Shown here: positions 10,531 through 64,000 of the stretch, piece after piece
How positions within the stretch are numbered: the stretch's first letter is position 1
Layout: each line of letters begins with the position of its first letter
Assembly: GCA_964637955.1 (NCBI GenBank)
Contig: CAZWXQ010000003.1
Location: forward strand, 159,154-223,153
DNA from: an uncultured Gammaproteobacteria bacterium
Lineage (GTDB): Bacteria; Patescibacteriota; Microgenomatia; Levybacterales; UBA12049
Length of the DNA stretch: 64,000 nt
Direction of reading: 5' to 3'
The notes under the pieces: generated by a model
What the model was told of the DNA's origin: nothing
The model's database searches: none
The model's input: the letters and a program-made list of their open reading frames with translations, nothing else
Made by a program: the position numbers and the translations under genes

Positions 10531-12084
10531 ATGGAGTATATTTATCTGTTTAAAAATAAATATTATTTACTAACTTTAATTTTTGTTATTTCATTTTCAG
10601 TACACTTAATTGGGCTTAACAAAATAGGAAGGACTTGGGATGAAGGTTTTAAAGTAGATTCTGGATATATGGCGTTGGGAAATATTGCTTCTCGAGATTT
10701 TTCAGTAAACTCGTGGTATTTGGTTCCTGAGCATCCAATGGTAGGAAAGTATGCATATGGTTTGCTTATGGGCCCTCAGACCATAAGAATCGATGATGGA
10801 AATGGACATTTTGCAAATATATCTGATTTAGATATGGTTGCAATAACTACTGGTAACTATATTAAAACTCAGTTAGGAAATAAGCTTTATATGGTTTCCT
10901 ATGATTACACGATGGCAAGGGTTTTATCGGCTCTTTTCAATAGTCTTGCAATTACTTTTACTGTGTTAATTGCGCTAAATTTCCTAAGTGCATTTTGGTC
11001 ACTACTGGCTGGAATTTTTATGCTTCTTATTCCCAGATTTGTCGTTATGGGGCAGCTCGTTACTTTTGAGTCTTTGACAATCTTTTTATTTACCCTAACC
11101 CTATTAGTATTTTATAAATTATTAAATAAACCAAAAGACATAAAACTTTACCCAATCATGGGAATACTATGTGGTTTGTTATTTTGGACGAGATATAACA
11201 ACTACTTTGTATTCGTATTTTTATTTGGATGGATGATTTTGGACTATTATTTTAAGAGAAATAAAGAAATTTTTAATTATCGTCTTATTATAATTCCTAT
11301 AATTGCATTTTTTTTGGGAATTGTAATTTGGCCACTTGTTTGGAATGATTTCCCTAAATATCTTTTGGAATCCGTTTTATTTCATAAAGATAGACTAATT
11401 CCTTCATTTTATTATTTCCATAGGCTTATTATTACTACTCCTATTCCCATAATAATCGGAGTTGGTTTTGGATTGTTTTTTGCTCTAAGAGAAAAGAAAT
11501 ATTGGAATTATTTTTTTGCATTTTGGTTCATTTTTGTTTTAATTTATCACATGATTTTGGGTGTTCCAGGTGGAGGAACTAGATTTATTTTTATAATTTA
11601 TCCTGCAGTTGGAATAATGTGTGCATTTGGATATTTTAAGCTTCTTAAGAAAAAATGGATTTATGCACTTATTCCGATACTTGCGTTTATGATAATTGAT
11701 ATGGTTTCTTATTTTCCTTACTATCTCGACTATTACAATATGGCAATTGGAGGAGTAAAAGGGGCAAAGAAATTGCAGTATGAAGTTTCTTGGTGGGGCG
11801 AAGGTCAAAGAGGAGTAGGGAAATATATAAATAATAACGTGCCTTCTGGCGCAAGTGTTGGATATTATGTAGTTCCTAGGTATGTTGCACCTGCAACGAG
11901 AACTGATTTAAATAATTTGGGGTTTGTAGATGATACGGGAGCGGTTGCTGATTATGTAATGTTAAGTAGTGGAAGAGTACCTGAGTTTGAAAAGAAATAT
12001 AATGGGAAGTATGAAGTTATTTATTCAGAAAAAGTTAGAGGAGAAAATTTGGTTTTGCTTATGAAAAAGAAAAATACCAAATAA
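10531..12084 (+). CDS. GT-C fold polytopic glycosyltransferase (PMT_2/ArnT-like)
   Basis: 517 aa with more than 10 TM segments. The first extracytoplasmic loop carries IGRTWDEGF, a DE motif typical of GT39/GT83. Confidence 0.5.
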   Translation: MEYIYLFKNKYYLLTLIFVISFSVHLIGLNKIGRTWDEGFKVDSGYMALGNIASRDFSVNSWYLVPEHPMVGKYAYGLLMGPQTIRIDDGNGHFANISDLDMVAITTGNYIKTQLGNKLYMVSYDYTMARVLSALFNSLAITFTVLIALNFLSAFWSLLAGIFMLLIPRFVVMGQLVTFESLTIFLFTLTLLVFYKLLNKPKDIKLYPIMGILCGLLFWTRYNNYFVFVFLFGWMILDYYFKRNKEIFNYRLIIIPIIAFFLGIVIWPLVWNDFPKYLLESVLFHKDRLIPSFYYFHRLIITTPIPIIIGVGFGLFFALREKKYWNYFFAFWFIFVLIYHMILGVPGGGTRFIFIIYPAVGIMCAFGYFKLLKKKWIYALIPILAFMIIDMVSYFPYYLDYYNMAIGGVKGAKKLQYEVSWWGEGQRGVGKYINNNVPSGASVGYYVVPRYVAPATRTDLNNLGFVDDTGAVADYVMLSSGRVPEFEKKYNGKYEVIYSEKVRGENLVLLMKKKNTK

Positions 12085-12087
12085 TAT

Positions 12088-13341
12088 TTATCTGCGATAG
12101 TTAAATATTAGGTAATAGATTAGATAAGCTGATGCTCCAACAGCTTGGCCAATTAATATTCCCCAGCCAATACCAACAAGTCCAAATGAGGAAAGTAAAT
12201 ATGTACTTATTATTATGGCTGATGCTCCAATAAAATTTAAAATAATAAGTGCATTTATTTTATGTCTTATTCTGAGGATAGAATTTGTAAATAAAGATAC
12301 TGGAACGAAGAGTGCTGAAATTGAAATTATTTGTAAAAATTTAAAAGCATCTTCTTCAAAATTTTTTCCAAAAAAATGAAGAATATAATTACCAAAAAAG
12401 AAAATTATAATTACACTTGGAATAAGTAGTAAGAAAGTTATTTTTGAAGCTTTTAAAATATGCTTTTTAAGTTCTGTTTCGTCATGAGATCCTTCGGTAA
12501 GTAATGACTGTGAAACGGATGAGGGTATAGTGAGTAAAAGTGTGTAGATCATAATATCTATATAATAGTATGCTGCATAAGTTGCCCCAATAGAATTAAC
12601 AATTAGAATTGGAAGAATTAAAAGTGGCGTAGATGATAAAAGGTTGGCAATGTAATTTCCGCTTGAAAATTTGCCCATGCTTTTAATTAATGGTATATTA
12701 ACACCTAAGATTAAATGAAATTTGAATTTATAAATTAATATTCCAAGACCGAAGAAAAAGCTAATTGCCATCGCAAGTGAAAAAGCTGAGAAAAGTCCAT
12801 ATGCGCCAAATGCGGAAAATATAAATAGAAATAATATTTTTAAAGTACTTAGTATTAAGCTTTTTGAAAGAACGTTTCCTGCGTCTCTGTACGCAGTAAA
12901 TATATAATCTAAAAGACTATTTAAAGATATTACGATGGTAAAGAAGATGAAAGTTGATATGTAGATTAAATTGTTATTGAGAAAAGATAGTTTTGGAGAA
13001 AATATATTTATACCTATTAAAAATATAATACATACGATTAGACTAACAAATGTTATAAGAATTGAAGATGATGAAATCATTTCATTTTTGACTTCAGATT
13101 TGGGCAAAAATCTATTTAAGCTAATATTTAATCCAAGCATGCAAAAGCCGGATATTAAGGATGAAACGGATAATAATGTAGTTGCTACGCCAATTTGATC
13201 AGTCGTAAAGTTTTTTGCTGCTATAACCCAGAAGAAAAATCCAAAACCAGCCATTACACCTGAGCTTGCTATTAAATATATAGAATTTCTGTATAAATGA
13301 TCAGATCTGAAATGATTTATGATCGTCTTGAATCTACCCAT
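12088..13341 (-). CDS. Wzx-like polysaccharide/oligosaccharide flippase (MOP superfamily)
   Basis: 417 aa with about 12 TM. The N-terminus NSIYLIASSGVMAGFGFFFWVIAAKNFTTDQIGV is typical of the polysaccharide biosynthesis protein family. Confidence 0.65.
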   Translation of the reverse strand: MGRFKTIINHFRSDHLYRNSIYLIASSGVMAGFGFFFWVIAAKNFTTDQIGVATTLLSVSSLISGFCMLGLNISLNRFLPKSEVKNEMISSSSILITFVSLIVCIIFLIGINIFSPKLSFLNNNLIYISTFIFFTIVISLNSLLDYIFTAYRDAGNVLSKSLILSTLKILFLFIFSAFGAYGLFSAFSLAMAISFFFGLGILIYKFKFHLILGVNIPLIKSMGKFSSGNYIANLLSSTPLLILPILIVNSIGATYAAYYYIDIMIYTLLLTIPSSVSQSLLTEGSHDETELKKHILKASKITFLLLIPSVIIIFFFGNYILHFFGKNFEEDAFKFLQIISISALFVPVSLFTNSILRIRHKINALIILNFIGASAIIISTYLLSSFGLVGIGWGILIGQAVGASAYLIYYLIFNYRR

Positions 13342-13436
13342 ACATTCATTATATATGTTAATTGCCCAACATCTATAGAAGTAATTATTTTTGTCCTCGA
13401 GGTAAATTTTATATAGGATATATCAGCTTCAGTATA

Positions 13437-13534: not shown

Positions 13535-13741
13535 ATGATTGATATAAGTAAAACTAACTTCCTTACAGTTGCAGAGGTTTCAGCACTACTGCGATTAAGT
13601 GAGCTTACTATTTATAAATACCTTAAAGAAGGTAAGCTTGAAGCAGTCGAATTTGGCGGTCATTATCGCATTTCAGAATCTTCATTATTTAAATTTATTG
13701 AAAAGCATAAAGTAAATTCAGTTAAGGAGGAAAATGAATAA
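13535..13741 (+). CDS. Small helix-turn-helix DNA-binding protein (excisionase/MerR-like HTH_17 type)
   Basis: FLTVAEVSALLRLSELTIYKYLKEGKLEAVEFGGHYRI is the canonical helix-turn-helix of the excisionase-family DNA-binding domain. The track start at 13505 falls inside the predicted promoter, so I prefer the ATG at 13535. Its 3' end carries the AAGGAGG Shine-Dalgarno site of the next gene. Confidence 0.55.
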   Translation: MIDISKTNFLTVAEVSALLRLSELTIYKYLKEGKLEAVEFGGHYRISESSLFKFIEKHKVNSVKEENE

Positions 13742-16700
13742 CGAATCTACTGGGTTGAGTATTATCGTTCCTACATATAATGAAGAAGCTAATATTAAAT
13801 TATTAGTTGAAAGAATTCACGCTGCTTTATCTGATGCAAAAATAAATTATGAAATAATTTTTGTTGATGATCACTCTACAGACCAGACTCAAAATGTGAT
13901 CAGTAATCTAGCCATTTTTTTTCCAATCATTTCAACTACTAAGGTAGGCAAAAAAGGTAAAGCATATTCAATATTAGAAGGTGCTAAATTTGCTCAGTTT
14001 GATAATTTAGCCATGATTGACGCAGATCTTCAATATCCGCCAGAAGCTCTTCCGAAAATGGTAAACATGCTTAAGTATTCTGATTTGGTAATTTCAAATA
14101 GAAAAACATATAAAGATACAAAACTTAGAAAAGTTTTAAGTCGTACATTCAAGTTTATGTTTGGAAAGGTTTTATTTGGACTTAATTATGATATTCAATC
14201 AGGACTTAAAGTGTTTACAAGAGAAGTTTTTGAAACATTAAAGTATATGCCTTCATCTTCTTGGACATTTGATCTTGAGTTTTTACATAGGGCGAAACAG
14301 GCAGGATTTCATATGAGCAGCTATGATATTACTTTCACCAAAAGAGCAAAAGGAAATTCAAAAATGGGGATCATGAAGCAAGTTATAGAAATTGGATCTA
14401 ATGCAATAAGAGTCAAAGCAAAAAGAATTAGACCTGTTCATATTGCTCCAAAAAGTTTAGATTCTATGAAAGGTGCTGGAATAGGTTATAAAAAAAGAAA
14501 GTATATTACTCATACTACTATTCCACATCACTTATCAGCTTTAACTACCGTAACTAAATTACAAAAATTTATCGTAATTATGATTGTTGGAATTTTAATT
14601 GTTGGAATACTGACAACGCCGATGCTAACTTTAAAGTTGTTAATTGGAGTTCTAAGTTTTATATACCTGGCAGATGTATTATTTAATTTATTTTTAATTT
14701 CAAAAAGCTTAAATAGTCCTCAGGAAATTATATCTTCAAAAGATGAGATTGATTCAGTGAAGAATTCAGATTTGCCAATATATTCTATACTTTGTCCACT
14801 CTATAAAGAGGCTCAGATTATTCCGCAATTTTTAGAAGCTATTGAAAAAATTTCGTGGCCAAAAGATAAGCTTGATGTAATATTACTTTTGGAAGAAGAC
14901 GATAGGGTAACGATCGATGTTGCAGCAAGAATGGATTTACCTTCTTTTGTTAGAACAATTATTGTTCCACATTCAATTCCTAAAACAAAACCTAAGGCAT
15001 GTAACTATGGACTTGCATTTGCAAAAGGAGAGTATGTAGTTGTTTATGATGCAGAAGATATCCCAGATGTAGACCAATTAAAAAAAGCATTTCTTGGTTT
15101 TAAGAAAAGTTCAGAAAACGTAATATGTCTTCAAGCGAGACTTAATTATTACAATCCTCACCAGAATTTATTAACAAGATTTTTTACAGCAGAGTACTCA
15201 CTTTGGTTTGATGTAACGCTTCCTGGAATGGTGGCGATTGAAACTGCTTTGCCATTGGGTGGAACCAGTAATCATTTCAAAACAAAATACTTACAGTCTG
15301 TTCATGGATGGGATCCATTTAATGTGACTGAAGATGCCGATTTAGGAATCCGGCTTTTTAACCAAGGATATAAAACTGCAATGATTGATTCAACAACTCT
15401 TGAAGAAGCAAATAGTAATCTTAAAAATTGGTTTAGGCAAAGATCACGTTGGATAAAAGGGTATATGCAGACATATCTGGTGCATACGAGACGAAATGGT
15501 GTTTCAAGCAATAAGAAATCAAAACACTCTTTATATTTTCAATTAATAATTGGAGGAAAAATCGCTTTTGTTCTTATAAATCCTATTCTTTGGATTGCTA
15601 CATTTGCATATTTTGCACTTTATTCATATGTAGGGCCTAGTATAGAACAGCTATATCCCAATGTCATATTTTATATGGCTATATTTTCTCTCGTAGTTGG
15701 CAATTTCCTCTTCCTTTATTACTACATGATTGGACTTGCGAAGAAAGGACAATGGAGTCTTATTAAATATGTGTTATTAGTTCCTATTTATTGGTTAATG
15801 ATAAGTATTTCTGCATTCATCGCTTTGTATCAATTAATATTTAAACCTCACTACTGGGAAAAAACAGTTCATGGTTTACACTTGAAGAAAGATGAAGTTA
15901 AAGAAAAAGTAAACGTTGTGGAAGAGATCCCCGCATATGATGATATCTCAAAGAAAAGACTTAGATATATTAATATTAAGCAAATTGCTGCAGTTACTAT
16001 ATACTCATTAGGAATATTATTCATTTTTCAAGATAATATTTTATATGCTTCATTAGTTTTGTTAAGTTCATTCTTAATTTACGTCATCTATACTTTATTG
16101 TTTCCTCTTTTAGCAGATTTATTACGCTCTGTGTTTTCAAATTTAAGTGATTTACTTAGTATGTTTAAAAAATCAAATGAGGAAAGCAGTGGAATTAGGA
16201 TTTTAGTATTAAATTGGAGAGACAGTAAGCATAAATGGGCTGGTGGGGCAGAGGTATATGCACATGAGTTAGCTAAAAGATGGGTAAAGGATGGCAATAG
16301 TGTAACAATGTTTTCTGGAAATGATGGAAAGAATAAAAGTAATGAAACTATTGATGGCGTAAATATCATAAGGCATGGAGGTTTTTATACAGTCTATTTC
16401 TGGGCTTTTGCTTACTATGTAATTAAATTTCGCGGAAAATTTGACGTAATTATTGATACTGAGAATGGAATTCCATTCTTCTCGCCTTTATATTCTAGAA
16501 AGAAAAAATTTCTCTTGATTCACCATGTTCATCAGGAAGTATTTAGAAAAAGTTTAAGATGGCCATTTTCAGACCTAGCATTATTTTTAGAAGCAAAACT
16601 TATGCCGTTTGTTTATAGAAATGTTCAAGTAATCACAGTTTCTCCGTCATCAAAAAAAGAAATTTTAAAACATAAGCTGACTAAAAAAGATCCAATAGTC

Positions 16701-17345
16701 ATCTATAACGGTGTAAATCATGACATATTTAAGCCCGCTAAAAAAAGTCAAAAGCCAATGGTCATATATCTTGGTAGACTTCAGTACTATAAAAGTTTAC
16801 ATATTTTTATAGTAGCTGCAAAAAGAATACTTAAGAAAAATCCAAAAGTTCAGTTTGTTATCGCTGGCGAAGGTGAGGAAAAAAAGAAGCTAATGAATTT
16901 TGCTAAAAAATTGGAAATTTCTGATCAAGTTAATTTTTTAGGCAAAGTAACTGAAGAAGAAAAAGTAAAGATATTTCAAGAAGCATGGGTATTTGTTAAC
17001 CCTTCTTATATGGAGGGATGGGGAATTACTACGATTGAAGCAAACGCTTGTGGAGTCCCAGCTGTTGCTTCAAATGTAGCAGGATTAAAAGATGCTATTA
17101 AAAATAATGAAACGGGATTTTTGGTTGATTATAAAGACTATGACAGTTTCACAAAAAGTATATTAGCTTTAATCGATGATGAATCATTAAGAAAAAGAAT
17201 GTCAGAAAATGCATTAAATTGGTCAAAGAAATTTAGCTGGGATATTAGCGCTGAGTTGTTCCTTGAAGTTATTAAGATCTCATTACAAGAAGATGATTAC
17301 AAATCAGAATCTTATACAAATATATTTTTAATGCAAAAAAACTAA
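13734..17345 (+). CDS. Three-domain membrane glycosyltransferase: N-terminal DPM1/GtrB-like GT2, central processive GT2 synthase (PgaC/NodC/cellulose-synthase-like), C-terminal GT4
   Basis: Domain 1 (LSIIVPTYNEE..FVDDHSTDQT) is polyprenyl-phosphate sugar synthase-like. Domain 2 has YDAEDIPD, VTEDADLG (TED) and FRQRSRW (QxxRW) and is flanked by TM helices. Domain 3 (EGWGITTIEANACGVPAVAS..ETGFLV) has the GT4 E-x7-E signature. An AAGGAGG Shine-Dalgarno site lies 7 nt upstream. 1203 aa. Confidence 0.8.
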   Translation: MNNESTGLSIIVPTYNEEANIKLLVERIHAALSDAKINYEIIFVDDHSTDQTQNVISNLAIFFPIISTTKVGKKGKAYSILEGAKFAQFDNLAMIDADLQYPPEALPKMVNMLKYSDLVISNRKTYKDTKLRKVLSRTFKFMFGKVLFGLNYDIQSGLKVFTREVFETLKYMPSSSWTFDLEFLHRAKQAGFHMSSYDITFTKRAKGNSKMGIMKQVIEIGSNAIRVKAKRIRPVHIAPKSLDSMKGAGIGYKKRKYITHTTIPHHLSALTTVTKLQKFIVIMIVGILIVGILTTPMLTLKLLIGVLSFIYLADVLFNLFLISKSLNSPQEIISSKDEIDSVKNSDLPIYSILCPLYKEAQIIPQFLEAIEKISWPKDKLDVILLLEEDDRVTIDVAARMDLPSFVRTIIVPHSIPKTKPKACNYGLAFAKGEYVVVYDAEDIPDVDQLKKAFLGFKKSSENVICLQARLNYYNPHQNLLTRFFTAEYSLWFDVTLPGMVAIETALPLGGTSNHFKTKYLQSVHGWDPFNVTEDADLGIRLFNQGYKTAMIDSTTLEEANSNLKNWFRQRSRWIKGYMQTYLVHTRRNGVSSNKKSKHSLYFQLIIGGKIAFVLINPILWIATFAYFALYSYVGPSIEQLYPNVIFYMAIFSLVVGNFLFLYYYMIGLAKKGQWSLIKYVLLVPIYWLMISISAFIALYQLIFKPHYWEKTVHGLHLKKDEVKEKVNVVEEIPAYDDISKKRLRYINIKQIAAVTIYSLGILFIFQDNILYASLVLLSSFLIYVIYTLLFPLLADLLRSVFSNLSDLLSMFKKSNEESSGIRILVLNWRDSKHKWAGGAEVYAHELAKRWVKDGNSVTMFSGNDGKNKSNETIDGVNIIRHGGFYTVYFWAFAYYVIKFRGKFDVIIDTENGIPFFSPLYSRKKKFLLIHHVHQEVFRKSLRWPFSDLALFLEAKLMPFVYRNVQVITVSPSSKKEILKHKLTKKDPIVIYNGVNHDIFKPAKKSQKPMVIYLGRLQYYKSLHIFIVAAKRILKKNPKVQFVIAGEGEEKKKLMNFAKKLEISDQVNFLGKVTEEEKVKIFQEAWVFVNPSYMEGWGITTIEANACGVPAVASNVAGLKDAIKNNETGFLVDYKDYDSFTKSILALIDDESLRKRMSENALNWSKKFSWDISAELFLEVIKISLQEDDYKSESYTNIFLMQKN

Positions 17346-17346
17346 T

Positions 17347-55021: not shown

Positions 55022-55022
55022 A

Positions 55023-55060: not shown

Positions 55061-55131
55061 TTGGTTGCAGGTGGCGTATTAATTGTGATATATCTTTTAA
55101 ACCGTGTATTTAGTTCGTCTTTTCAATAAAA

Positions 55132-56391: not shown

Positions 56392-56528
56392 ATATTCTCA
56401 TTAGTTTCAAAGATTTGTTTGTGTTTTCTTTTTACATTTCGAAGTTCATTATTTATTTAAATGCCTCAATTTATAAGATAAGTTTTCTAGTTTGCAAACC
56501 AATTAAAACAGATTATAATAAGCAATCA

Positions 56529-57041: not shown

Positions 57042-57055
57042 AACTCTATAATAAA

Positions 57056-57814: not shown

Positions 57815-58780
57815 TTAAATATACAAGCCTCCATTTACATTAAAAATTTGTCCTGTAATATATGATGCTTCATCAGAAACTAAATATCCAACAACTGATG
57901 CAACTTCCTCAGGTTTTCCAAGTCTTCCCATAGGAATCTGAGAGATTAATTGTTCAAGCGCAGCATCTCCGACACTTAGCATCAAATCGGTTTCGATACA
58001 GCCTGGAGCTACTGCGTTAACGGTAATATTGTTTCCTGCTAATTCTTTTGCTAGTGATTTTGTAAAAGAAATGATTCCTCCTTTTGCCGCTGTGTAATTA
58101 GTCTGCCCAGCATATCCCATTTGTCCAACAAAGGACGTCATTGAAACAATTCTTCCATGTTCAACATCTTTCATTAATGGAATTGCTGCCTTTGAGCAAA
58201 GAAAAACACTTTCTAAATTTGTTTTAATGACTATGTTCCATTGCTCATCTGTCATATTTTCAAGACGTCTGTCCATCATCATGCCTGCGTTGTTAACAAG
58301 AATATCTATGTGATTATTTTTGTTTCTAATCACATCCATCATTGTATTTACTTGCTTTGCATCAGAAACATCAGCTTGTAGATAATATGCTTTCCTACCA
58401 AGTTTTTTAATTTCAGATGCGACTTCTTTACCCTCTTTAGTGCTATTTTTGCTGTTAATAATAATATCTATTCCTTTTCGAGCAAGTTCTAATGCTATTG
58501 CTTTACCGATTCCCCTGGAGCTTCCAGTAATTAGTGCTACTCTTGGTCGTGTTTTCTTTTTTAATATATTCTTTGGAGTAAAAATCTGTATCTTATTTCC
58601 TAAATATTCAATTGTTGAAATGTCTCCTTGAGTATTAATGTGAATGCTATTGCTATGTTCTGGTCTTGCTTGTGCAACTGCTCTTTGATTATTGGTATTT
58701 TTAAGAACAACCAAAATATATCCGTTTTTAAACGGTGCAAGGGGTATTATGACGTTGGTAAAACTCACAACTTTCCACAT
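57815..58780 (-). CDS. SDR-family 3-oxoacyl reductase (FabG/PhaB-like) with an N-terminal 85-aa extension resembling a DUF35-type OB-fold
   Basis: VALITGSSRGIGKAIA is the TGxxxGxG motif, NAG and YAGQTNYTAAK (YxxxK) are present, and it ends PGCIETDLM. The N-terminal WKVVSFTNVIIPLAPFKNGYILVVLKNTNNQRAVAQA fits the DUF35 OB-fold pattern. Confidence 0.7.
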   Translation of the reverse strand: MWKVVSFTNVIIPLAPFKNGYILVVLKNTNNQRAVAQARPEHSNSIHINTQGDISTIEYLGNKIQIFTPKNILKKKTRPRVALITGSSRGIGKAIALELARKGIDIIINSKNSTKEGKEVASEIKKLGRKAYYLQADVSDAKQVNTMMDVIRNKNNHIDILVNNAGMMMDRRLENMTDEQWNIVIKTNLESVFLCSKAAIPLMKDVEHGRIVSMTSFVGQMGYAGQTNYTAAKGGIISFTKSLAKELAGNNITVNAVAPGCIETDLMLSVGDAALEQLISQIPMGRLGKPEEVASVVGYLVSDEASYITGQIFNVNGGLYI

Positions 58781-58781
58781 A

Positions 58782-59924
58782 TTAGTTAGATAAAACTGTT
58801 ACTAGCGCGCTTGCTCCTACTCCTCCCAAATTACATGTTAATCCATAATTAAGTTTTTCAATTTGACGTTCTCCAGCTTCTCCTCGAAGCTGTTTTACTA
58901 CCTCTACCATTTGCCCAACTCCAGTTGCTCCAACTGGATGTCCTTTTGCTTTTAATCCACCGCTAGTATTAATAGGGATTTTCCCACTTCTTTTTGTTTG
59001 CCCATTGTCAATAAGTTTTTTTGCCTGACCTTTTTCGCATAACCCTAAATCTTCCATTTCGACAATTTCTGCAATAGTAAAGCAATCATGTAATTCTGCA
59101 AAAGAAATATCTTTTGGAGTAATGCCAGCCATAGAATATGCTTTTTTTGCTGCAGCAACCACAGAAGGAATTGTAGTCAAATCAGTTCTATTAAATAAAC
59201 TGATTGGCCCAACAACGTGTCCCATACCTAATATATATACAGGTTTTTGCAACTTATGATCAATGGCATCTTCTGAAGAAAGAATTACTGCAGCTGCTCC
59301 ATCTGAAATTGGTGAGCAATCTAAGAGTTTTAATGGAGATGATATTAATCGTGAAGACATAACATCATCGACTGTGATTTTTTTATGAAAGTGAGCTAAT
59401 GGATTTAAAAATGCATTATCGTGATTTTTAACTGCAACTTTTGCAAGATGAGTTTCATCTGAATGATATTTTGCAAAATAAGCATTTGCAATAAGTGCAA
59501 AAAGAGAAGGAAATGTAAATCCATGTTTCATTTCCTCTTTGCTTGCTGCAGTGCTAAGTATCTTTGTTGCAGTATCAATAGTAACTCCAGTCATTTTTTC
59601 AACTCCAATAACCAAAACGTTTTTGTATCTTCCACTTAATATGGCAAGCATTCCTTGCTTTACGGCCAAGCTGCCAGATGCGCATGCGGATTCAACTCGA
59701 GTAATTTCAGTGGTTAACCCAAGCTCTTCAGAAGTAACAGCAGAAATGTGCCCTTGCATCGTGAATTGACTTGAAAAATTTCCGATATAAACAGCGTCTA
59801 TTTCATTTAATTTAATATGCGAATTTTCTATTGCGTCTGTAGCTGCCTGTTTTATAAGCTCTTCTAGAGTTTGCGGTAATACGCCAAATTTTGTATGTCC
59901 AATGCCGGTTATTGCAATTCTCAT
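58782..59924 (-). CDS. Thiolase-family protein (archaeal/SCP-x-type acetyl-CoA C-acyltransferase)
   Basis: MRIAITGIGHTKFG and the active-site region ESACASGSLAV fit the thiolase family. 380 aa. Its stop abuts the SDR start. Confidence 0.7.
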   Translation of the reverse strand: MRIAITGIGHTKFGVLPQTLEELIKQAATDAIENSHIKLNEIDAVYIGNFSSQFTMQGHISAVTSEELGLTTEITRVESACASGSLAVKQGMLAILSGRYKNVLVIGVEKMTGVTIDTATKILSTAASKEEMKHGFTFPSLFALIANAYFAKYHSDETHLAKVAVKNHDNAFLNPLAHFHKKITVDDVMSSRLISSPLKLLDCSPISDGAAAVILSSEDAIDHKLQKPVYILGMGHVVGPISLFNRTDLTTIPSVVAAAKKAYSMAGITPKDISFAELHDCFTIAEIVEMEDLGLCEKGQAKKLIDNGQTKRSGKIPINTSGGLKAKGHPVGATGVGQMVEVVKQLRGEAGERQIEKLNYGLTCNLGGVGASALVTVLSN

Positions 59925-60024
59925 TAGTTTACAAATTTCTTTTTGCTATGATAGACAATTTTATATTTATAAACAAGTATTGCAAAAATTCAGCCCCATT
60001 TAAATTTAGATTATTATATTTATT

Positions 60025-61131
60025 TTAATATGTCCGGGTAGTTTTTTTTTCATAAAAACGAAGTATGCATTCGCTTACTTTTTTTATGTCACTGTCTTTT
60101 AGAGTAAAAGCTGAAGGTAACCAAAGAGTAGATTTTGATATCTTTGTAGCTAACGGAAATTTAGTGCCATTTTGCTTGTAGTAATTCTGAGTGTGGATTG
60201 GAAACCAAAAATTCCTTGAGTCAATATTATTTTTATTCAAAAAATTTACTAAATTATCCCGATCATTAAAAATTCCATCAGACCATTGTGGTACTTCTTC
60301 AGATTTAAATTTAAATAAAGAAAAATGTTTGCTTTTCCCTAAATATTTTACATACAGTTCATAATTTCTTTTAAGTCTTTGAAGCCTCGCCTCTAGTTGA
60401 TTTAATTGTCCTAGGCCAATTGCAGCTTGAACATCTGTAAATTTAAAGTTGTAACCAATTCCTTCATGAATATCATCTCCTCCGGTGCCTCGTTTTGGTC
60501 GTCCTTGGTCTTTTAGCTCAACAAGTTTTTTATAAAGTTTGGAATCATTCGTAGCAACAAATCCACCTTGGCCAGTAGTGATCGTTTTGGCAGGGGAAAG
60601 TGAAAAACAACCTGTTAATCCGATTGTGCCTAAAAATTTGTTTTTGTGCATAGACATAAATGCCTCAGCAGCGTCTTCGATTATAGGTATATTAGTATTT
60701 TTACTTATTTCTAAAAGGCTATCTAAATCTGCCGCATGTCCACTTACATGGACTGGAATGATCGCCTTTGTTTTTTTAGTTATAGCTTTTTTAGTTGCTT
60801 CGATACTGATTGTGGGGCTATTAGTATCGACATCTACGAGAATTGCTTTTGCACCGGTCATTTCTACTGCATTTGCTGTTGCAATGAAAGTTATATCAGG
60901 AACAATAACTTCGTCTCCTGGGCCCACTCCAATAGCTTTTAGAGACAGAAACATGCCCGACGTCGCATTTGTAACTACTAGAACATGTTTTACTTTAAGT
61001 AATTTAGCAAGTTTATCTTGAAATTTAATAGATAGGTCACCTTCGTTGGGGAAGTTACTTTTAAGTACAGACTTAATGAGCTTATATTCTTCTTTGCCAA
61101 TTATTGGTTGCCACCATGGAATTTTTTTCAT
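60025..61131 (-). CDS. DegT/DnrJ/EryC1/StrS sugar aminotransferase (second copy)
   Basis: WWQPIIGKEEYKLIKSVLKSNFPNEGDLSIKFQDKLAKLL..TNATSGMFLSL matches the family. 368 aa. Confidence 0.8.
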   Translation of the reverse strand: MKKIPWWQPIIGKEEYKLIKSVLKSNFPNEGDLSIKFQDKLAKLLKVKHVLVVTNATSGMFLSLKAIGVGPGDEVIVPDITFIATANAVEMTGAKAILVDVDTNSPTISIEATKKAITKKTKAIIPVHVSGHAADLDSLLEISKNTNIPIIEDAAEAFMSMHKNKFLGTIGLTGCFSLSPAKTITTGQGGFVATNDSKLYKKLVELKDQGRPKRGTGGDDIHEGIGYNFKFTDVQAAIGLGQLNQLEARLQRLKRNYELYVKYLGKSKHFSLFKFKSEEVPQWSDGIFNDRDNLVNFLNKNNIDSRNFWFPIHTQNYYKQNGTKFPLATKISKSTLWLPSAFTLKDSDIKKVSECILRFYEKKTTRTY

Positions 61132-61288
61132 TTGTATCCTTTTAAATAAATTTCAACAATTTGCTTGCCGTCTATAATTTTTTTAGTTATTTATAAAATC
61201 TTTTGAATTATATCAAAATGCGAATATCAATTTACATTGCTTTTATGTTAATTAAAAAACAATTATAATCACATCTGACTAGATATAC

Positions 61289-62248
61289 ATGGAAAAAATT
61301 TTAATTACTGGAGGAACTGGATTTTTAGGAAGTGCTTTGACTAGAAAACTTATTAAATTAGGTTTTAATGTAAGCGTGTTTGATAATGATTATAGAGGTA
61401 ATAAATCAAGGCTTCATGATGTTGAAAAAGATTTCGAATTTATAAAAGGGGACATCAGGGATTTATCTAGTGTTTCAAAAGCATTAAAAAATAAAGATAT
61501 TGTTTTTCACTTAGCTTATATAAATGGGACAGAGTTTTTTTATAGTAAGCCTGAATTAGTTTTAGAAGTAGCTGTAAAAGGAACTATGAATGTCATGGAC
61601 GCGATGATAAAAAACAGCGTTTCCGAAATTTTTTATGCAAGTAGTTCAGAAGTTTATTTTTTACCAAAGAAAATTCCAACTGATGAAACTGCGCAGCTTT
61701 TAATTCCTGATCCAAAAAATCCAAGATTTTCATACTCAGGAGGAAAAATTATTAGTGAATTAATTGCATTAAATTATGGTAAAAAGTATTTTGAAAGAAC
61801 CGTTATATTTAGGCCTCATAATGTTTTTGGGCCTGATATGGGAAATGAACATGTTATTCCTCAGTTCATTAATAGAATGCATGAGCAAAATCTTAAAAGA
61901 GGAAATAAATTTTTATTTCCAATTCAGGGTACTGGACAGGAAACCCGAGCATATATTTATGTTGATGATTTTATAAGTGGATTGGAAATATTATTAAAAA
62001 AGGGTAAAAACCTAGAAATATATCACATCGGGTCGGAAGAGGAGATCAAAGTTGAAAAATTAGCTTACGAAATTGCTAAGATAATGAATGTTAATATTAA
62101 GATTAAGCCCAGCAAATTACTTGAGGGGAGTACTCCTAGGCGCGCTCCAGACATCTCAAAAATTAAAAAATTAGGTTTTAAGCAAAAGACTGATTTGATT
62201 GAGGGATTAACAAAAACTATCAATTGGTATGTAGACAAAAAAATATAA
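61289..62248 (+). CDS. Extended-SDR NAD-dependent nucleotide-sugar epimerase/dehydratase (4,6-dehydratase or UDP-GlcA decarboxylase-like)
   Basis: ILITGGTGFLGSALTRKL is the GxxGxxG motif and YSGGKIISE the YxxxK motif. 319 aa. Confidence 0.8.
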   Translation: MEKILITGGTGFLGSALTRKLIKLGFNVSVFDNDYRGNKSRLHDVEKDFEFIKGDIRDLSSVSKALKNKDIVFHLAYINGTEFFYSKPELVLEVAVKGTMNVMDAMIKNSVSEIFYASSSEVYFLPKKIPTDETAQLLIPDPKNPRFSYSGGKIISELIALNYGKKYFERTVIFRPHNVFGPDMGNEHVIPQFINRMHEQNLKRGNKFLFPIQGTGQETRAYIYVDDFISGLEILLKKGKNLEIYHIGSEEEIKVEKLAYEIAKIMNVNIKIKPSKLLEGSTPRRAPDISKIKKLGFKQKTDLIEGLTKTINWYVDKKI

Positions 62249-62265
62249 ATGACGTATAAATTACA

Positions 62266-63534
62266 ATGATGATAAAAGATCAGCTTAAGAAAACATACAA
62301 AACAAATAAAAGCGTGATAGTTGATTCGTGTCAAACTTGCGGTAATAAAAATCTAGTATCAATAATATTTTTAGGATATATGCCGCCAGTTAATACGATG
62401 CCAAAAATTGGTTCAAAGCCAAATGAGGAGCCTAGTTTTCCAGCCCAACTTCTTTATTGTTCAAAATGTCACTTAGTTCAAATAGGGTTGATCGTTGATC
62501 CTGTGATTCTTTTTCCAAAAAGCTATCCCTATACTAGCGGTACAACGAAAGTATTGAGAGAAAATTTTGCCGATTTGTGGGATGAATCATCAAAGCTTAT
62601 CTCATTTGATAACAAGGATCTTGTAGTTGATGTTGGATCGAATGACGGAACTCTTCTTAGTAATTTTAAAGACCACTCAAAAGTTTTAGGAATTACACCA
62701 GAAGATATAGGTAGATTAGCAATTAAAAAAGGAATACCTACAATTCTTGATTATTTCAACGAAAATAGCGTAAATGTCGCTCTTAAAAAATATGGGAAAG
62801 CGAAATTGGTTACAGCTGCAAATGTATTTGCTCATATCGAGCATGTTCATGAAGTTTTAAATAATATATTGAAAATGCTTACCAAAGACGGAGTTTTTAT
62901 AAGTGAATCTCATTATCTTTTGCCACTTATTAACGATGTTCAATACGATACGATTTATCACGAACATTTAAGATATTATTCTCTCCATAGCTTGAAATAT
63001 TTACTCGAAATGCACGGCCTTGAAGTATTCCACGTAAAAGAGATTCCTTCACATGGTGGATCGATTCGGGTATATGCAAGTAAAAAAGGTAATTATAAAG
63101 TTGATAAAACTGTTTCAAGTCAATTAAAAAAGGAAAAAGGAGTTGTAACGAGCATGGAATCATTTAAAAATTTTGAGAAAAAAGTTATCCAATCAAAACT
63201 GGATCTGGCAAAAATAATTAGTGACATTAAAAAGAAAAACGGGAGAATATATGGAATAAGCGCTCCATCTAGAGGAACTACCTTAATTAATTATTTAGGT
63301 TTTGATTATGGAATCGTGGATGCGATTGTTGAGATTAAAGGATCATATAAAATTGGAAAATATTTACCTGGAACACTTATTCCAGTACTTGATGAAGAAA
63401 GACTTATTAAAGATCAACCTGAGTATGCACTTTTATTGTCTTGGCATATTACAGATGAATTAATTCCAAAATTGAGAGCAAAAGGGTTTAGGGGTAAATT
63501 TATAAAGCCTTTACCGATACCGAAGGTGGTATGA
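62266..63534 (+). CDS. SAM-dependent NDP-hexose C-methyltransferase-like protein (TylCIII/Coq5 class) with an N-terminal zinc ribbon
   Basis: The zinc ribbon is [28 protein letters not shown] is the SAM-binding glycine loop. The architecture matches sugar 3-C-methyltransferases. 422 aa. Confidence 0.6.
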
Positions 63535-64000
63535 GTAAGAAAATCTTAATAAGTGTTATTGTCCCGGTTTATAATGAAAAGGGAAATATTAAATCTGCAG
63601 TAAGCCTCTCTGAAAAAGTTATTAAGTATCCCCACGAATATATTGTCGTTTATGATTTCGATGAAGACGATACAATCCCTGTCGCTAAAGAGTTGATAGA
63701 TAAGGGATTTGGTCTTAGGCTAATAAAAAATAAATATGGTTCTGGGGTCACAAATGCTGTCAGGACGGGCTTTTTAAATGCTGAAGGTGAATGTGTGGTT
63801 GTATTTTCTCCTGATGGCGCTGATGACCCTAAAGCTATAAATTTAATGTACGAAAAAATGCTTGAAGGTTACGATTTAATCTGTGCGACAAGATACTCGA
63901 GTGGAGGAAAAAGATTAAATCAAAATTCCGTAAAATCTTTTCTTTCTAATTTTGTTGGAATTTCAACCCCATTTGTTTTAGGAATTAATATAACAGATCT
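63531..64000 (+). CDS. DPM1/GtrB-like GT2, truncated by the window end
   Basis: The ATG at 63531 overlaps the previous stop at an ATGA junction. [28 protein letters not shown] is a GT2 DxD region, and the reading frame is open to 64000. Confidence 0.65.

Follow-up and report, generated by a model that had tools for sequence, protein, structure and literature searches.

Given the many predicted membrane glycosyltransferases encoded in the 64,000-nucleotide stretch analysed here (the window), which comes from a tiny uncultured Microgenomates (CPR/Patescibacteria) bacterium, it may be asked whether its final 53.5 kb (10531–64000) carries a single extracytoplasmic glycosylation system, as the original prediction had it, or several. 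All open reading frames named in that prediction are present, the one at 53396 being an internal ATG, matching a 541-aa NCBI gene call, of the full frame 53387–55021. With 417–1203 residues in a sequence of 32% GC, the polytopic and glycosyltransferase frames are not chance ORFs; the families searched have from 16 to more than 2000 database homologues, and start and stop codons of neighbouring genes overlap in the ORF list.

The genes between 32345 and 45163 are of housekeeping type (RND pump, IleRS-type synthetase, RodA, L21, ParB and signal peptidase), and the span is thus split into separate modules. Module 1 comprises 13734–27330 together with a mirrored paralogous set (synthase, famA and famB) on the opposite strand at 27559–32167, whereas module 2 starts at 45571 and extends some 4.5 kb past the window end. 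The idea of one system has accordingly to be given up for a minimum of two modules without relation to each other and, in addition, a PMT_2 gene standing alone at 10531, which adjoins the dcw cluster; this housekeeping split had been overlooked before. The reading preferred here, and held to be reasonably probable from the sequences, is that several transmembrane glycosylation systems, multi-component and of Gram-positive type, would be encoded in the span, distributed over two or more modules independent of one another.

The seven polytopic proteins

All seven named polytopic proteins, including the two that had been listed only as possible members, classify as GT-C, and none as a transporter or polymerase:

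10531–12084, +: stand-alone GT-C of PMT_2 type (Pfam PMT_2 27.5 bits, cut-off 26.1)
21948–23501, +: GT-C family A, famA (NF047440, putative glycosyltransferase, 4.5e-14)
23494–25134, +: GT-C family B, famB (assigned from AF2 model and Foldseek PDB matches)
27559–29160, −: famB, second copy (39% identical to 23494 over 510 aa; loop motif AYNDSRAH kept)
29150–30589, −: famA, second copy (30% identical to 21948; NF047440 7.5e-8)
51335–53107, −: GT-C, PTPS_related/YfhO-like (PF10131 30.7 bits, cut-off 26.4; 11 TM)
53387–55021, +: GT-C family E, famE, rare (assigned from AF2 model and Foldseek PDB matches)

The striking density of GT-C genes pointed out originally is borne out, the 53.5 kb containing these seven together with nine GT-A/GT-B genes; the paralogy within families A and B had not been noticed. 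Each protein has 9–12 predicted transmembrane (TM) segments, the GT-C topology consisting of TM1, a long loop in which acidic residues are invariant, and a TM bundle. A loop of 61–101 residues follows TM1 directly in six of the seven, whereas in 51335 two N-terminal TMs precede the long loop. A C-terminal soluble domain after the bundle is found in four proteins (10531, 23494, 27559 and 53387); in 10531, with 9 predicted TMs, it covers 122 residues, and the 101-residue loop carries W36-D-E. The corresponding loop is marked by an invariant Y59-N-D61-x-R-x-H65 in famB and by an invariant D48-E49-G50 in famE.

It could be argued that these proteins are not glycosyltransferases at all but, for instance, transporters, ligases or Wzy polymerases, and that the GT2s serve a Wzx/Wzy or synthase pathway as ordinary enzymes of the cytoplasm, since only two of the seven have a Pfam match of their own, profile-profile links among the GT-C families are weak, and sequence-profile searches of the PDB with the polytopic families gave no matches. 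This explanation is, however, largely refuted and very improbable. The famA protein 21948 lacks its own Pfam match, but 17 of 91 diverse relatives match PMT_2 (best 7.3e-9), with further matches to PMT, GT87, Mannosyl_trans4 and TMEM260-like models; through these relatives and NF047440, which matches both famA and famB, the family is putatively assigned to GT-C. For famB (23494; no Pfam match, more than 2000 homologues, all annotated as 'hypothetical') and famE (53387; no Pfam match, only 16 homologues in the database), the assignment follows from AF2 models (pLDDT 77.6 and pTM 0.74 for famB; 86.8 and 0.86 for famE) for which every significant PDB match is a GT-C enzyme. These occupy the top 45 Foldseek ranks for famB (STT3 1.6e-6, ALG12, ArnT, AftA and others) and the top 27 for famE (AglB 5.7e-7, AftA, STT3, ArnT, PglB), transporters appearing only at E>0.4; the TM-scores are modest (0.45–0.54), and the famB model is of low confidence precisely in the first loop. 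The conserved acidic residues of that loop also speak against non-glycosyltransferases.

Concerning 51335, its C-terminal YxPGWK segment is common to a YfhO-annotated 917-aa protein of the related locus L007. Next to it lies a short frame:

53115–53432, +: 105-aa ORF (43% identity with the C-terminal end of the 917-aa YfhO of L007)

This ORF is likely to be the remnant of a YfhO-type GT-C gene of which only the 3' end is left.

Probable lipid-carrier glycosyltransferases and the flippase candidate

The original prediction counted three DPM1/GtrB-like GT2s; all three are indeed nearest to polyprenyl-phosphate transferases, but the count has to be raised by a fourth:

13734–17345, +: three-enzyme fusion (Pfam: GT2, aa 1–250; BcsA-like synthase, aa 253–720; GT4, aa 836–1162)
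48204–48902, −: fourth DPM1/ArnC-like GT2, 232 aa, no TM (best PDB match ArnC 4.2e-8)
57056–57814, +: DPM1-like GT2, 252 aa, no TM (PDB DPMS 2.1e-14, then GtrB, ArnC)
63531–64000, +: DPM1-like GT2, no TM, cut by the window end (35% identical to 57056)
12088–13341, −: MOP-superfamily membrane protein (MatE 27.1 bits, cut-off 24.9, aa 245–381; 11 predicted TM)

The four TM-less GT2s (in 13734 the N-domain) are closest to DPMS/GtrB/ArnC, their best solved relatives being P. furiosus DPMS, GtrB and ArnC over about 200 residues (DPMS 1.3e-22, GtrB 7.5e-15 and ArnC 1.7e-12 for the 13734 N-domain, the orthologue of which is a stand-alone 237-aa gene in locus L005). Their NCBIfam matches are the polyprenyl-phosphate glycosyltransferases ArnC, PgfS, AglJ and PpgS, with PgfS among the best for all four: 48204 best matches ArnC (8.3e-12) and AglJ, with PpgS (1.9e-6) lower in the list; 57056 best matches dolichyl-phosphate hexose transferase (1.3e-11); and 63531, complete as 235 aa on L003, a sequence 100% identical to window positions 54697–64000, matches PgfS (2.5e-16), AglJ, DPhHxTase and PpgS (7.2e-13). 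All four fall far below every equivalog cut-off (e.g. 71.8 bits vs 529 for ArnC), and the DADLQ motif is missing in three of them, 13734 having DADLQxPPE (IDADLQYPPE). Their probable role is the loading of a lipid carrier with sugars.

By homology, such a GT2 at the cytoplasmic face would transfer a sugar from a nucleotide sugar to polyprenyl phosphate, the lipid-linked sugar would then be flipped, and a GT-C would move it to an acceptor outside the membrane. This division of labour, proposed originally, is strongly favoured by homology and by conserved linkage in relatives, but not by the scores below the equivalog cut-offs or by the lack of the TM helices that GtrB and ArnC possess. The flippase, previously taken as Wzx-like, fares worse: 12088 is possibly of Wzx type, yet weakly supported, MatE being just above its cut-off, Polysacc_synt (23 bits, aa 17–274) below its cut-off of 28.2, SpoVB at E=3.6e-4, and the PDB yielding no match. 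The gene lies outside both modules and is not orthologous to the Polysacc_synt gene of the L007 cluster. The ORFs of at least 100 aa yielded no GtrA-type protein.

Module 1 and its possible acceptors

Besides the fusion gene and the two GT-C pairs, module 1 contains the following genes:

17347–18393, +: APH-type kinase-like protein (Pfam APH 4.8e-10)
18390–19187, +: NodB-type (IcaB/PgaB-like) deacetylase (Polysacc_deac_1 4e-24; IcaB 3.1e-21; PgaB 2.8e-18)
19163–20095, 20092–20997 and 20998–21927, +: three tandem paralogous GT2s (Pfam GT2; PgaC/NodC-like)
25134–26108, +: membrane-anchored extracytoplasmic protein (conserved, 55–58% identical across genomes)
26196–26795, +: secreted LAxTG sortase-substrate protein (signal peptide, 4 invariant Cys, LANTG + TM + KRKE)
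26758–27330, +: sortase (Pfam Sortase 1.9e-19)
30596–32167, −: BcsA-like processive membrane GT2 synthase, second copy (Glyco_trans_2_3 4.1e-23; BcsA 8e-14)

The BcsA-like synthases, the sortase with its LAxTG protein, and the synthase-dependent route had not been recognized before. The synthase 30596 has the motifs QRTRW, TED and DAED, and the middle domain of 13734, 50% identical to it, carries QRSRW; judged by these motifs, a predicted synthase-dependent route with two QRxRW synthases coexists with the GT-C genes. The tandem GT2s (mutually 32–36% identical; best NCBIfam PgaC_IcaA, up to 5.5e-28) are nearest to PgaC/NodC, in contrast to the DPM1-like GT2s with their polyprenyl-phosphate transferases. 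Neither signal peptide nor TM is predicted for the deacetylase, and as a cytoplasmic enzyme it would, like ArnD and LgmC, probably modify the lipid-linked sugar, together with the kinase-like protein.

Conservation was counted over 38 species-level loci with full flanks. In all 38, famA adjoins famB and a 25134-like gene lies directly downstream of famB, the three being collinear; the tandem GT2s are present in 35, the LAxTG protein in 31, the sortase in 27 and the MOP gene in none, the synthase and DPM1-like domain being found in at least 12–14, a lower bound since their position coincides with the limit of the 10-kb flank. Sequence identity of famB is 61–79% in the best 80 of 401 matching loci. 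The upstream content of glycosyltransferases, methyltransferases and acetyltransferases varies by genome, while famA, famB, 25134, LAxTG protein and sortase stay constant. The 5' end of famB and the stop of famA share 8 nt (29150 overlaps its neighbour by 11 nt), and famA is fused to famB in P0275; although they look unrelated, the two are translationally coupled and in some organisms fused, and so most likely form a heterodimer. Other fusions join famA to the 25134-like protein (P0370), to the kinase-like APH domain with the deacetylase (P0257/P0258) or without it (P0391), to PIG-L and a FemAB-like domain, to GT2 and to GT4.

The preferred acceptor would be a polysaccharide associated with the wall, to which the synthase and the PgaC/NodC-like GT2s would give rise. 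The 25134 protein (no match in Pfam, NCBIfam or PDB) probably aids its binding, and the LAxTG protein, whose motif is retained in 44 of 51 homologues, and the sortase would belong to the same envelope-assembly operon as the GT-C pair. It should be pointed out that the extra GT2/GT4 genes would be superfluous for single-sugar decoration, which counts against the preferred explanation, as does the modest number of loci, itself a lower bound, in which the synthase and DPM1-like domain were seen.

Alternatively, the glycan might be transferred en bloc: the DPM1-like GT2 would prime polyprenyl monophosphate in the manner of AglJ in the N-glycosylation of haloarchaea, the variable GT2/GT4 enzymes would extend the lipid-linked oligosaccharide cytoplasmically, a MOP flippase would export it, and famA-famB would move the whole glycan to the LAxTG protein or the wall. 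The constant genes behind a variable upstream part resemble glycan-variable, transferase-constant loci, the top structural matches are STT3 (famB) and AglB (famE), AglJ is among the best NCBIfam matches of the GT2s, and an oligosaccharide would make a MOP-type flippase sensible. Moreover, no product with a phosphoglycosyl transferase Pfam family occurs in the three annotated module-1 loci; this speaks equally for the preferred reading, being in line with a DPM1-like GT2 or a synthase as the priming enzyme. Nevertheless, en-bloc transfer is considered unlikely: a WWDYG-type motif is absent from all seven GT-C proteins, ArnT, ALG12 and AftA score about equally to STT3, the conserved operon lacks the MOP gene, and the LAxTG protein shows no conservation of its Ser-rich linker, the Ser-rich tract being missing from the L004 homologue.

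Ser/Thr-rich secreted proteins are encoded in the window by 26196 (its linker) and 37208–37654. Protein O-glycosylation of the PMT, Pgf or GtrB-PgtC2 type, in which GT-Cs place single sugars from polyprenyl-phosphate-sugar on disordered, Ser/Thr-rich stretches of proteins that are secreted or anchored by sortase, has a streptococcal precedent (10.1101/2024.05.05.592596; PMC5856776) and could draw on these proteins, on the PMT_2/PMT matches of 10531 and famA relatives, on PgfS among the best matches of all four GT2s and on the linkage of sortase and substrate to the GT-C pair. It is judged equally doubtful, however, with no MIR domain and no PF02366 match in the window proteins, with the L004 homologue lacking the tract, and with processive synthases, an IcaB-like deacetylase and PgaC/NodC-like GT2s indicating a polysaccharide.

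Slightly less probable still is that the GT-Cs do not decorate a ready-made polymer but are themselves the primary wall-polysaccharide polymerases, working outside the cell from polyprenyl-phosphate-sugar donors like the Emb/Aft arabinosyltransferases. Their pairing recalls EmbA-EmbB, AftA, AftB and EmbA/B/C occur among the structural matches, and the high conservation of famB (in those best 80 loci) suggests a core, possibly essential role, but the same operon already has a full cytoplasmic polymerising set (two QxxRW synthases, GT4 and three GT2s).

Module 2 and comparison with known systems

Module 2 appears to couple unusual amino-sugar pathways to the small GT2s and GT-Cs described above:

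45571–46566, +: GT4 (Pfam)
46557–47555, +: Acyl_transf_3 membrane O-acyltransferase (Pfam)
47576–48250, +: sugar formyltransferase-like enzyme (Formyl_trans_N 5.9e-24; ArnA 5e-18; dTDP-4-amino-4,6-dideoxyglucose formyltransferase 3.1e-12)
48899–49927, −: UDP-GlcNAc 3-dehydrogenase-like oxidoreductase (NF040723 1.8e-51)
50189–51295, +: DegT aminotransferase (DegT 2.2e-112)
55132–56391, +: nucleotide-sugar 6-dehydrogenase (TIGR03026 339.9 bits, cut-off 189.8)
56415–57041, +: hexapeptide acyltransferase (Hexapep)
57815–63534: second sugar pathway, with FabG-like SDR (−), thiolase (−), DegT (−), 4,6-dehydratase-like (+) and C-methyltransferase (+) (Pfam, NCBIfam)

Of the two pathways, one resembles a route to a 2-acetamido-3-amino uronic acid with an N-acetyl or N-formyl group, the other a route to a C-methylated, possibly N-acylated 6-deoxy amino sugar. 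Each would end in a small TM-less GT2 (48204, 57056 and 63531; the 48204 and 48899 genes overlap by 4 nt), the products of which would feed the GT-Cs 51335 and 53387 and a downstream GT2+PMT_2 fusion. The latter, of 852 aa, lies 2.5 kb past the window end, following an RmlD-like gene downstream of 63531 on L003. The gene set is kept in the loci L006 and L007, which also have a Polysacc_synt flippase and a YfhO; there, orthologues of 57056 (54–59% identical) stand in a formyltransferase-DegT-GT2 triad, and the DegT, dehydratase and C-methyltransferase of the second pathway have counterparts of 52–69% identity.

Lipid-carrier-linked surface decoration as such is of a known kind, the module-1 operon, conserved across Microgenomates, being previously undescribed. 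The preferred reading of several transmembrane systems has precedents in the combination of a TM-less GT-A (GacI), a Wzx-type flippase (GacK) and a GT-C (GacL), and in CsbB/GtcA/YfhO (PMC8035078), as well as in GtrB and a GT-C acting on proteins (bioRxiv 10.1101/2024.05.05.592596).

Gene content of the window and its DPM1-like GT2 enzymes

All the ORFs named in the original prediction were recovered at their coordinates by ORF calling in the window, which has a GC content of ~32% and belongs to a contig of 299,907 bp (NCBI). Database searches matched it best to MAGs from the Microgenomates group of the CPR/Patescibacteria, Levybacteria and Daviesbacteria among them. The beginning of the window (1-10438) is occupied by the dcw cluster—murC, murA, mraY, ftsW, murG, ftsA and ftsZ—with a nucleotidyltransferase gene (2959-3729, +) inserted between murA and mraY, and a 138-aa single-TM protein lacking a Pfam match (6985-7401, +) encoded between murG and ftsA, the expected location of an FtsQ-like protein. 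A second FtsW/RodA-family gene (41265-42347, +), 31% identical to the dcw-cluster copy (4827-5897, +), is found directly 3' of the gene of an IleRS-type synthetase, the stop codon of which it overlaps by one base. Two glycosylation modules can be distinguished—module 1 at 13734-27330, with a mirrored paralog set behind it, and module 2 from 45571 to beyond 64000. Between them lie an HlyD-type adaptor and an AcrB-type RND transporter (32345-37233, +) in a genome expected to be single-membrane, a secreted 148-aa protein without a Pfam match that is rich in Ser/Thr/Asn over a long stretch (37208-37654, −) and represents a possible O-glycosylation substrate, as well as a 207-aa protein adjoining the signal peptidase (44540-45163, +) and having an acidic low-complexity N-terminus, one TM segment and no Pfam match. 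At the opposite end, the gene 63531 is truncated by the window; it is completed on the Logan contig L003, 100% identical to window 54697-64000, where it encodes 235 aa, the genes 3' of it coding for an RmlD-like protein and a GT2+PMT_2 fusion of 852 aa.

Concerning the cytoplasmic glycosyltransferases, three DPM1/GtrB-like GT2s had been proposed originally (the N-terminal domain of 13734, 57056 and 63531), and all three were indeed found closest to polyprenyl-phosphate glycosyltransferases, 63531 in NCBIfam and the other two in both PDB and NCBIfam comparisons; a fourth candidate, 48204, had been overlooked. Their relatives are as follows:

13734, N-terminal domain: best PDB relatives P. furiosus Dol-P-Man synthase (1.3e-22), GtrB (7.5e-15) and ArnC (1.7e-12)
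48204: best PDB relative ArnC (4.2e-8)
57056: best PDB relatives DPMS (2.1e-14), GtrB and ArnC
63531, full-length: NCBIfam matches PgfS, AglJ, DPhHxTase and PpgS

The top NCBIfam matches of the four are of the polyprenyl-phosphate type, ArnC, PgfS, AglJ, dolichyl-phosphate hexose transferase and PpgS all being among the matches, with the tandem GT2s 19163, 20092 and 20998, serving as a control, ranking PgaC/IcaA and NodC first. All four DPM1-like GT2s miss the equivalog cut-offs of these five models, scoring 27-72 bits versus 325-529 bits and, as judged from sequence, none of the four is an ortholog of a characterised enzyme. The DADLQxPPE segment, which we take to be the active-site signature of GtrB/ArnC/DPM1, is present in 13734 as IDADLQYPPE, being absent or divergent in 57056, 63531 and 48204 (SVDGDW). 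In contrast to GtrB, ArnC and archaeal DPMS with their C-terminal TM helices, no TM helices of their own were predicted in 48204, 57056, 63531 or the 13734 N-domain. The helices at aa 269-324 of 13734 were considered as GtrB-like anchors of that domain, a reading dropped in view of their alignment with the N-terminal TM segments of 30596, the synthase paralog. TM-less members of this GT2 class are known, such as GacI, which works together with GacK, a Wzx-type flippase, and the GT-C enzyme GacL (PMC8035078), so that the missing helices do not rule out a polyprenyl-phosphate GT2 function.

GT-C assignment of the seven polytopic proteins

The original prediction assigned at least five polytopic proteins, and possibly two more, to the GT-C class, with profile-HMM classification suggested as the check. 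All seven are now assigned to it on the basis of Pfam, the Pfam matches of relatives, AlphaFold2/Foldseek, TM topology and acidic loop residues. Transporters or polymerases without GT-C signature loops, i.e. the outcome named as speaking against the assignment, were not obtained. The proteins, with the paralog pairs defined by all-against-all BLAST, are:

10531: Pfam PMT_2, 27.5 bits (cut-off 26.1)
21948 and 29150 (famA): paralog pair, 30% identity
23494 and 27559 (famB): paralog pair, 39% identity
51335: Pfam PTPS_related, 30.7 bits (cut-off 26.4)
53387 (famE): single gene, 16 homologs only

Each of the seven contains 9-12 predicted TM segments (~8-13 expected of GT-C) and, except for 51335 where two TM segments come first, a loop of 61-101 aa with conserved acidic residues immediately C-terminal to TM1 (6/7); a C-terminal soluble domain of 120-160 residues is found in four (10531, 23494, 27559 and 53387). 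The family PTPS_related (PF10131) is presumably a member of the GT-C clan, and 51335 has its C-terminal YxPGWK segment in common with a YfhO-annotated protein of a relative. The five members of famA, famB and famE have no Pfam match of their own. In the case of famB, with >2000 homologs, all of them unnamed and without Pfam domains, the AlphaFold2 model from a 30-sequence alignment (pLDDT 77.6, pTM 0.74) was compared with the PDB by Foldseek, and the best 45 matches are all GT-C—STT3, ALG12, ArnT, DPY19, AftA, ALG9, AglB, AftB, PIG-M, ALG3, Emb, Pmt and PimE—with a top E-value of 1.6e-6 (STT3) and TM-scores of 0.45-0.50, transporters appearing only at E>0.4. The model of famE (pLDDT 86.8, pTM 0.86) likewise yielded only GT-C structures among its best 27 matches (AglB at 5.7e-7, AftA, STT3, ArnT and PglB; TM-score up to 0.54), and one distant famE relative has PMT_2. 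As far as famA is concerned, its profile retrieved 9304 matches from 1.84 billion representative proteins; PMT_2 was detected in 17 of 91 diverse members scanned against Pfam (best 7.3e-9), single members matching PMT, GT87, Mannosyl_trans4 or TMEM260-like. The NCBIfam model NF047440 ('LA_3751/LA_3752 putative glycosyltransferase') matches both famA (4.5e-14, 7.5e-8) and famB (1.8e-6). By the available tests, famA is thus assigned to GT-C as well.

The first loop carries Y59-N-D61-x-R-x-H65, invariant in famB, and D48-E49-G50, invariant in famE; E49 and P81-D82 are conserved at ≥90% in the 91 diverse famA sequences, and W-D-E is found at 36-38 of 10531. These acidic residues fit a feature of the GT-C superfamily and represent putative catalytic positions. 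It should be noted that the C-terminal WWDYG motif of the oligosaccharyltransferases STT3/PglB/AglB, sought as WW[DN][YWF]G, is absent from all seven proteins, their likeness to these enzymes being one of fold only, and that neither the PF02366 PMT domain nor the loop-5 MIR domains of protein O-mannosyltransferases (GT39) occur in any window protein, PMT_2 being confined to 10531. Sequence-profile searches of the PDB with the famB, famE and famA alignments (27 and 91 sequences) gave no GT-C match, the sole matches, to alginate lyase, being judged as chance. The weak collinear hhalign matches among the three families (E from 3e-4 to 0.06, probability <40%) were set aside and not counted as evidence of homology.

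Two conserved modules and the flippase candidate

Module 1 and its surroundings comprise the following features:

13734: DPM1-like GT2, synthase and GT4 fusion
25134-26108 (+): membrane-anchored protein with an extracytoplasmic domain of ~300 aa
26196-26795 (+): ~190-aa LAxTG protein
26758-27330 (+): sortase, 3' of the LAxTG protein gene
27559-32167 (−): mirrored second set of synthase, famA and famB

Residues 253-720 of 13734 and the protein 30596 are 50% identical, resemble BcsA (best PDB match 8e-14) and contain the motifs QRTRW (30596), QRSRW (13734), NVTEDADLG and DAED, i.e. they show the sequence features of BcsA-like processive membrane GT2 synthases, with no PilZ domain detected by Pfam in either of them; the gene 13734 thus joins a DPM1-like GT2, a synthase and a GT4. 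A metagenome scan for the second famB copy, 27559, returned no close relatives.

The GT-A and GT-C genes, which share one operon in the window, remain linked in all three annotated loci (L001, L004 and L005; one is from Daviesbacteria, the other two from further MAGs of Microgenomates type). There the giant multi-GT gene comes first, followed by GT2/GT4 genes, deacetylase, kinase, acetyl-/methyltransferases, famA, famB, the 25134-like gene and the gene of the ~190-aa protein, and in two of the three (L001, L005) the sortase follows directly. In a one-genome-per-species collection, famB was found at 401 loci, 38 of which, those with full 10-kb flanks, were used for counting. In 38/38, famB is bordered on one side by famA and followed directly by the 25134-like gene; tandem-type GT2s occur in 35/38, the ~190-aa protein in 31/38, GT4 in 30/38 and sortase in 27/38, nearly all on the same strand and in the same order. 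The count of 12-14/38 for the synthase and the DPM1-like domain is a lower bound, since their position of −9 to −10 kb brings them to the border of the flank. The coupling is also reflected by overlaps in the window, both of famA with famB and of famB with 25134, and by fusions, namely famA+famB (P0275), famA+25134-like (P0370), kinase-like+NodB deacetylase+famA (P0257, P0258) and PIG-L+FemAB-like+famA (P0260, P0352), in addition to GT2+famA, GT4+famA and famA+famA. Many contigs with the Microgenomates-type famB operon (loci L008-L087) bear the titles 'uncultured Gammaproteobacteria', 'Pseudomonadales', 'Bdellovibrionales', 'Bathyarchaeia' or 'Eisenbacteria', which are probably mislabelled records of third-party assemblies.

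The 25134-like proteins (L001 11619-12608, L004 14209-15201, L005 11632-12957) are 55-58% identical across genomes, with DTMKYSRD, ECENGG, GEFGAPIPD and NYWTNVGG invariant; since 25134 gave no Pfam, NCBIfam or PDB match, its candidacy as a glycoside hydrolase was rejected. The ~190-aa protein, having a signal peptide, four invariant cysteines, a low-complexity linker, the LAxTG motif, a TM segment and a basic tail, is a predicted sortase substrate. The motif is kept in 44/51 homologs, as LANTG in the window and most commonly as LASTG in relatives.

Module 2 and its relatives L006 and L007 also preserve the GT-A/GT-C linkage. In the latter, famE is accompanied by a Polysacc_synt flippase within the cluster, a GT4, a GT2+PMT_2 fusion, a ~900-aa polytopic protein (YfhO-annotated in L007, without a Pfam match in L006), a C-methyltransferase, a dehydratase, a sugar dehydrogenase and a triad of formyltransferase, DegT and GT2, the last being the ortholog of 57056 (54-59% identity). 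The fusions (733-852 aa; L003 10577-13135, ~2.5 kb beyond the end of the window; L006 5102-7303; L007 4985-7240) have a GT2 part that is not clearly DPM1-like (best NCBIfam matches EpsD and arsenosugar-type) and a membrane part weakly matching the archaeal 'flippase activity-associated protein Agl23' model. The sugar-pathway genes of module 2 are:

47576: formyltransferase
48899: UDP-GlcNAc 3-dehydrogenase-like (1.8e-51)
50189: DegT aminotransferase
55132: nucleotide-sugar 6-dehydrogenase (TIGR03026, 339.9 bits, above cut-off)
56415: hexapeptide acyltransferase
57815: FabG-like
58782: thiolase
60025: DegT
61289: 4,6-dehydratase-like
62266: C-methyltransferase
downstream: RmlD-like

The first five resemble the WbpA/B/E/D set, which we take as the route to a 2-acetamido-3-acylamido uronic acid, and could make a sugar of this kind; the remaining six would lead to a 6-deoxy amino sugar carrying a C-methyl and possibly an N-(3-hydroxyacyl) group. 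Each block ends beside a small DPM1-like GT2. The thiolase-domain protein and the FabG/acetoacetyl-CoA-reductase-like SDR (57815-59924, −), without a counterpart in L006/L007, might supply the 3-hydroxyacyl group for N-acylation of the amino sugar. A true Arn pathway was rejected because of scores far under the equivalog cut-offs and a dehydratase of the 4,6-dehydratase type. The 105-aa protein with two TM segments (53115-53432, +) was considered as a small partner similar to GacJ or ArnE/F, an idea dropped since it matches nothing but the last ~75 residues of a YfhO-type GT-C of 917 aa, whose intact gene occupies this position in relatives (L007 7281-10034); it seems to be the 3' remnant of a deleted GT-C gene.

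The Wzx-like flippase 12088 had been counted as a part of the shared system, and only its superfamily assignment stood. With 11 predicted TM segments (~12 expected of Wzx), MatE at 27.1 bits on the second half (cut-off 24.9), Polysacc_synt at 23 bits on the first half (under the cut-off of 28.2), a weak SpoVB match and no PDB match, it is by sequence a weakly matching MOP-superfamily protein, for which Wzx-like and MurJ/SpoVB-like types are not separable. It adjoins the dcw cluster and belongs to neither conserved module, being found in 0/38 module-1 loci; orthology with the Polysacc_synt flippase of L007 was rejected (pairwise E 0.013). No GtrA-family proteins were detected among the window ORFs of at least 100 aa.

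Proposed mechanism and comparison with known systems

The two modules are best regarded as multi-component transmembrane glycosylation systems, in which a cytoplasmic GT2 would load a sugar onto polyprenyl phosphate, the loaded lipid would be flipped across the membrane and a GT-C enzyme would transfer the sugar outside. ArnD and LgmC tailor a lipid-linked sugar before flipping. A similar step by the deacetylase/kinase is suggested for module 1, the deacetylase of which has no signal peptide, since in other organisms deacetylase/kinase domains are fused to the cytoplasmic famA N-terminus. Most likely, famA and famB act as a pair, possibly as a heterodimer, and the favoured acceptor is a wall polysaccharide, the putative product of the synthase and of the PgaC/NodC-like enzymes. 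The presence of the genes, their family and fold assignment, paralogy, fusions and synteny are the observed part of this picture, from which the donor lipid, the sugars, the flipping step, the acceptor and the heterodimer are inferred.

Emb/Aft-like polymerisation by the GT-Cs is an alternative, Emb, AftA and AftB being among the structural matches. Another one is the en-bloc transfer of a polyprenyl-P-linked oligosaccharide following the haloarchaeal AglJ logic, in favour of which no phosphoglycosyl transferase family was found among the products of the three annotated module-1 loci, and the upstream GT content differs between genomes. In this vein, a famA-famB heterodimeric 'ligase' might be a core envelope-assembly machine of the class Microgenomatia, a glycan being built on polyprenyl monophosphate (DPM1-like GT2 priming, as in haloarchaea, without a phosphoglycosyl transferase), attached together with the 25134-type protein to the LAxTG protein or the wall, and fixed by sortase; we consider this unlikely. 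If true, it would mean a bacterial version of an archaeal-style glycoprotein/glycopolymer pathway with two GT-C families annotated in no database. The third alternative, O-glycosylation of either the LAxTG protein or proteins rich in Ser/Thr, is modelled on the streptococcal Pgf (PgfS-PgfM1-PgfE-PgfM2) and GtrB/PgtC2 systems (PMC5856776; bioRxiv 10.1101/2024.05.05.592596). These also combine a GtrB-like GT2 with two GT-C membrane proteins and act on membrane or sortase-anchored proteins that have Ser/Thr-rich regions; PgfS, however, is matched at just ~44-69 bits (cut-off 500 bits), the GT-C families are others and the operon here is dominated by polysaccharide-type genes. The Ser-rich linker of the 26196 protein (SSSSSSSNSNDS) is found in this genome only.

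The collinear operon, running from the multi-GT fusion to famA, famB, the 25134-like protein, the LAxTG protein and sortase, is a good candidate for the surface glycopolymer/glycoprotein machinery of the lineage. A large part of bacterial diversity belongs to the CPR/Patescibacteria, whose cell envelope is almost unknown; the surface is the face shown by these episymbiotic cells to hosts and phages. In Microgenomates, sortase is nearly ubiquitous, and the enriched protein families are mostly hypothetical, many of them being membrane proteins (Méheust et al. 2019, PMC6744442). A testable function, that of a GT-C glycosyltransferase, can now be proposed for two such unannotated families.

Among the known systems, the Gram-positive three-component ones—CsbB/GtcA/YfhO, GtlA/GtlB and GacI-GacJ-GacK-GacL of S. 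pyogenes (PMC8035078)—and Gac especially, share with the modules a GtrB/DPM1-related GT-A encoded together with GT-C, as well as the monoderm-type envelope with sortase. The Gac variant employs a TM-less GT-A and a Wzx-type flippase (PMC8035078), and the same may hold here. However, neither a flippase of the GtrA family nor a partner recognisable as GacJ-like is present in the window; the GT-Cs are an obligate pair of unannotated families, the GT2 forms a single protein with a BcsA-like synthase and a GT4, and the operon adds the 25134-type extracytoplasmic protein, the LAxTG protein and sortase. The Arn (ArnA-B-C-D-E/F-T) and LgmABC pathways, modifying lipid A, resemble module 2 in nucleotide-sugar dehydrogenase, DegT, formyltransferase, ArnC-like GT2 and GT-Cs, the formyltransferase-DegT-GT2 triad being kept in relatives, and the GT2, NodB-type deacetylase and GT-C of module 1 parallel ArnC-ArnD-ArnT and the LgmA-LgmC-LgmB of Bordetella. 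This type of organism, however, has no lipid A, all scores fall far under the Arn equivalog cut-offs, ArnE/F are lacking, the dehydratase resembles a 4,6-dehydratase instead of the ArnA decarboxylase, and C-methyltransferase, thiolase and FabG-like enzyme are added.

In haloarchaeal N-glycosylation (AglJ, AglG and AglB, on dolichol monophosphate), AglJ and the dolichyl-phosphate hexose transferase correspond to models matched by the GT2s, and AglB is the closest structure to the famE model, whereas the present lineage is bacterial and the seven GT-C proteins lack an STT3-type WWDYG. Finally, the two membrane GT2s with DxD, TED and QRxRW, the IcaB/PgaB-like deacetylase and the PgaC-like GT2s recall the BcsA and PgaC-PgaB systems, but without PilZ, BcsB or PgaA/D partners, with a deacetylase devoid of a signal peptide, and with GT-C genes linked to the synthase, which is itself part of a fusion with a DPM1-like GT2 and a GT4.

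The kind of system is already known (PMC8035078; PMC11127046; bioRxiv 10.1101/2024.05.05.592596); literature searches on CPR/Patescibacteria with GT-C, glycosyltransferases or sortase gave no description of the operon itself. Three apparent novelties add to GT-C biology, namely the two families without any annotation, the fact that they form an obligate pair, and the joining of a DPM1-like GT2 with a processive synthase in one protein. The constant linkage to the 25134-type protein, the LAxTG protein and sortase across Microgenomates likewise appears to be new, as does the crowding of eight GT-C genes into ~58 kb of a small genome.
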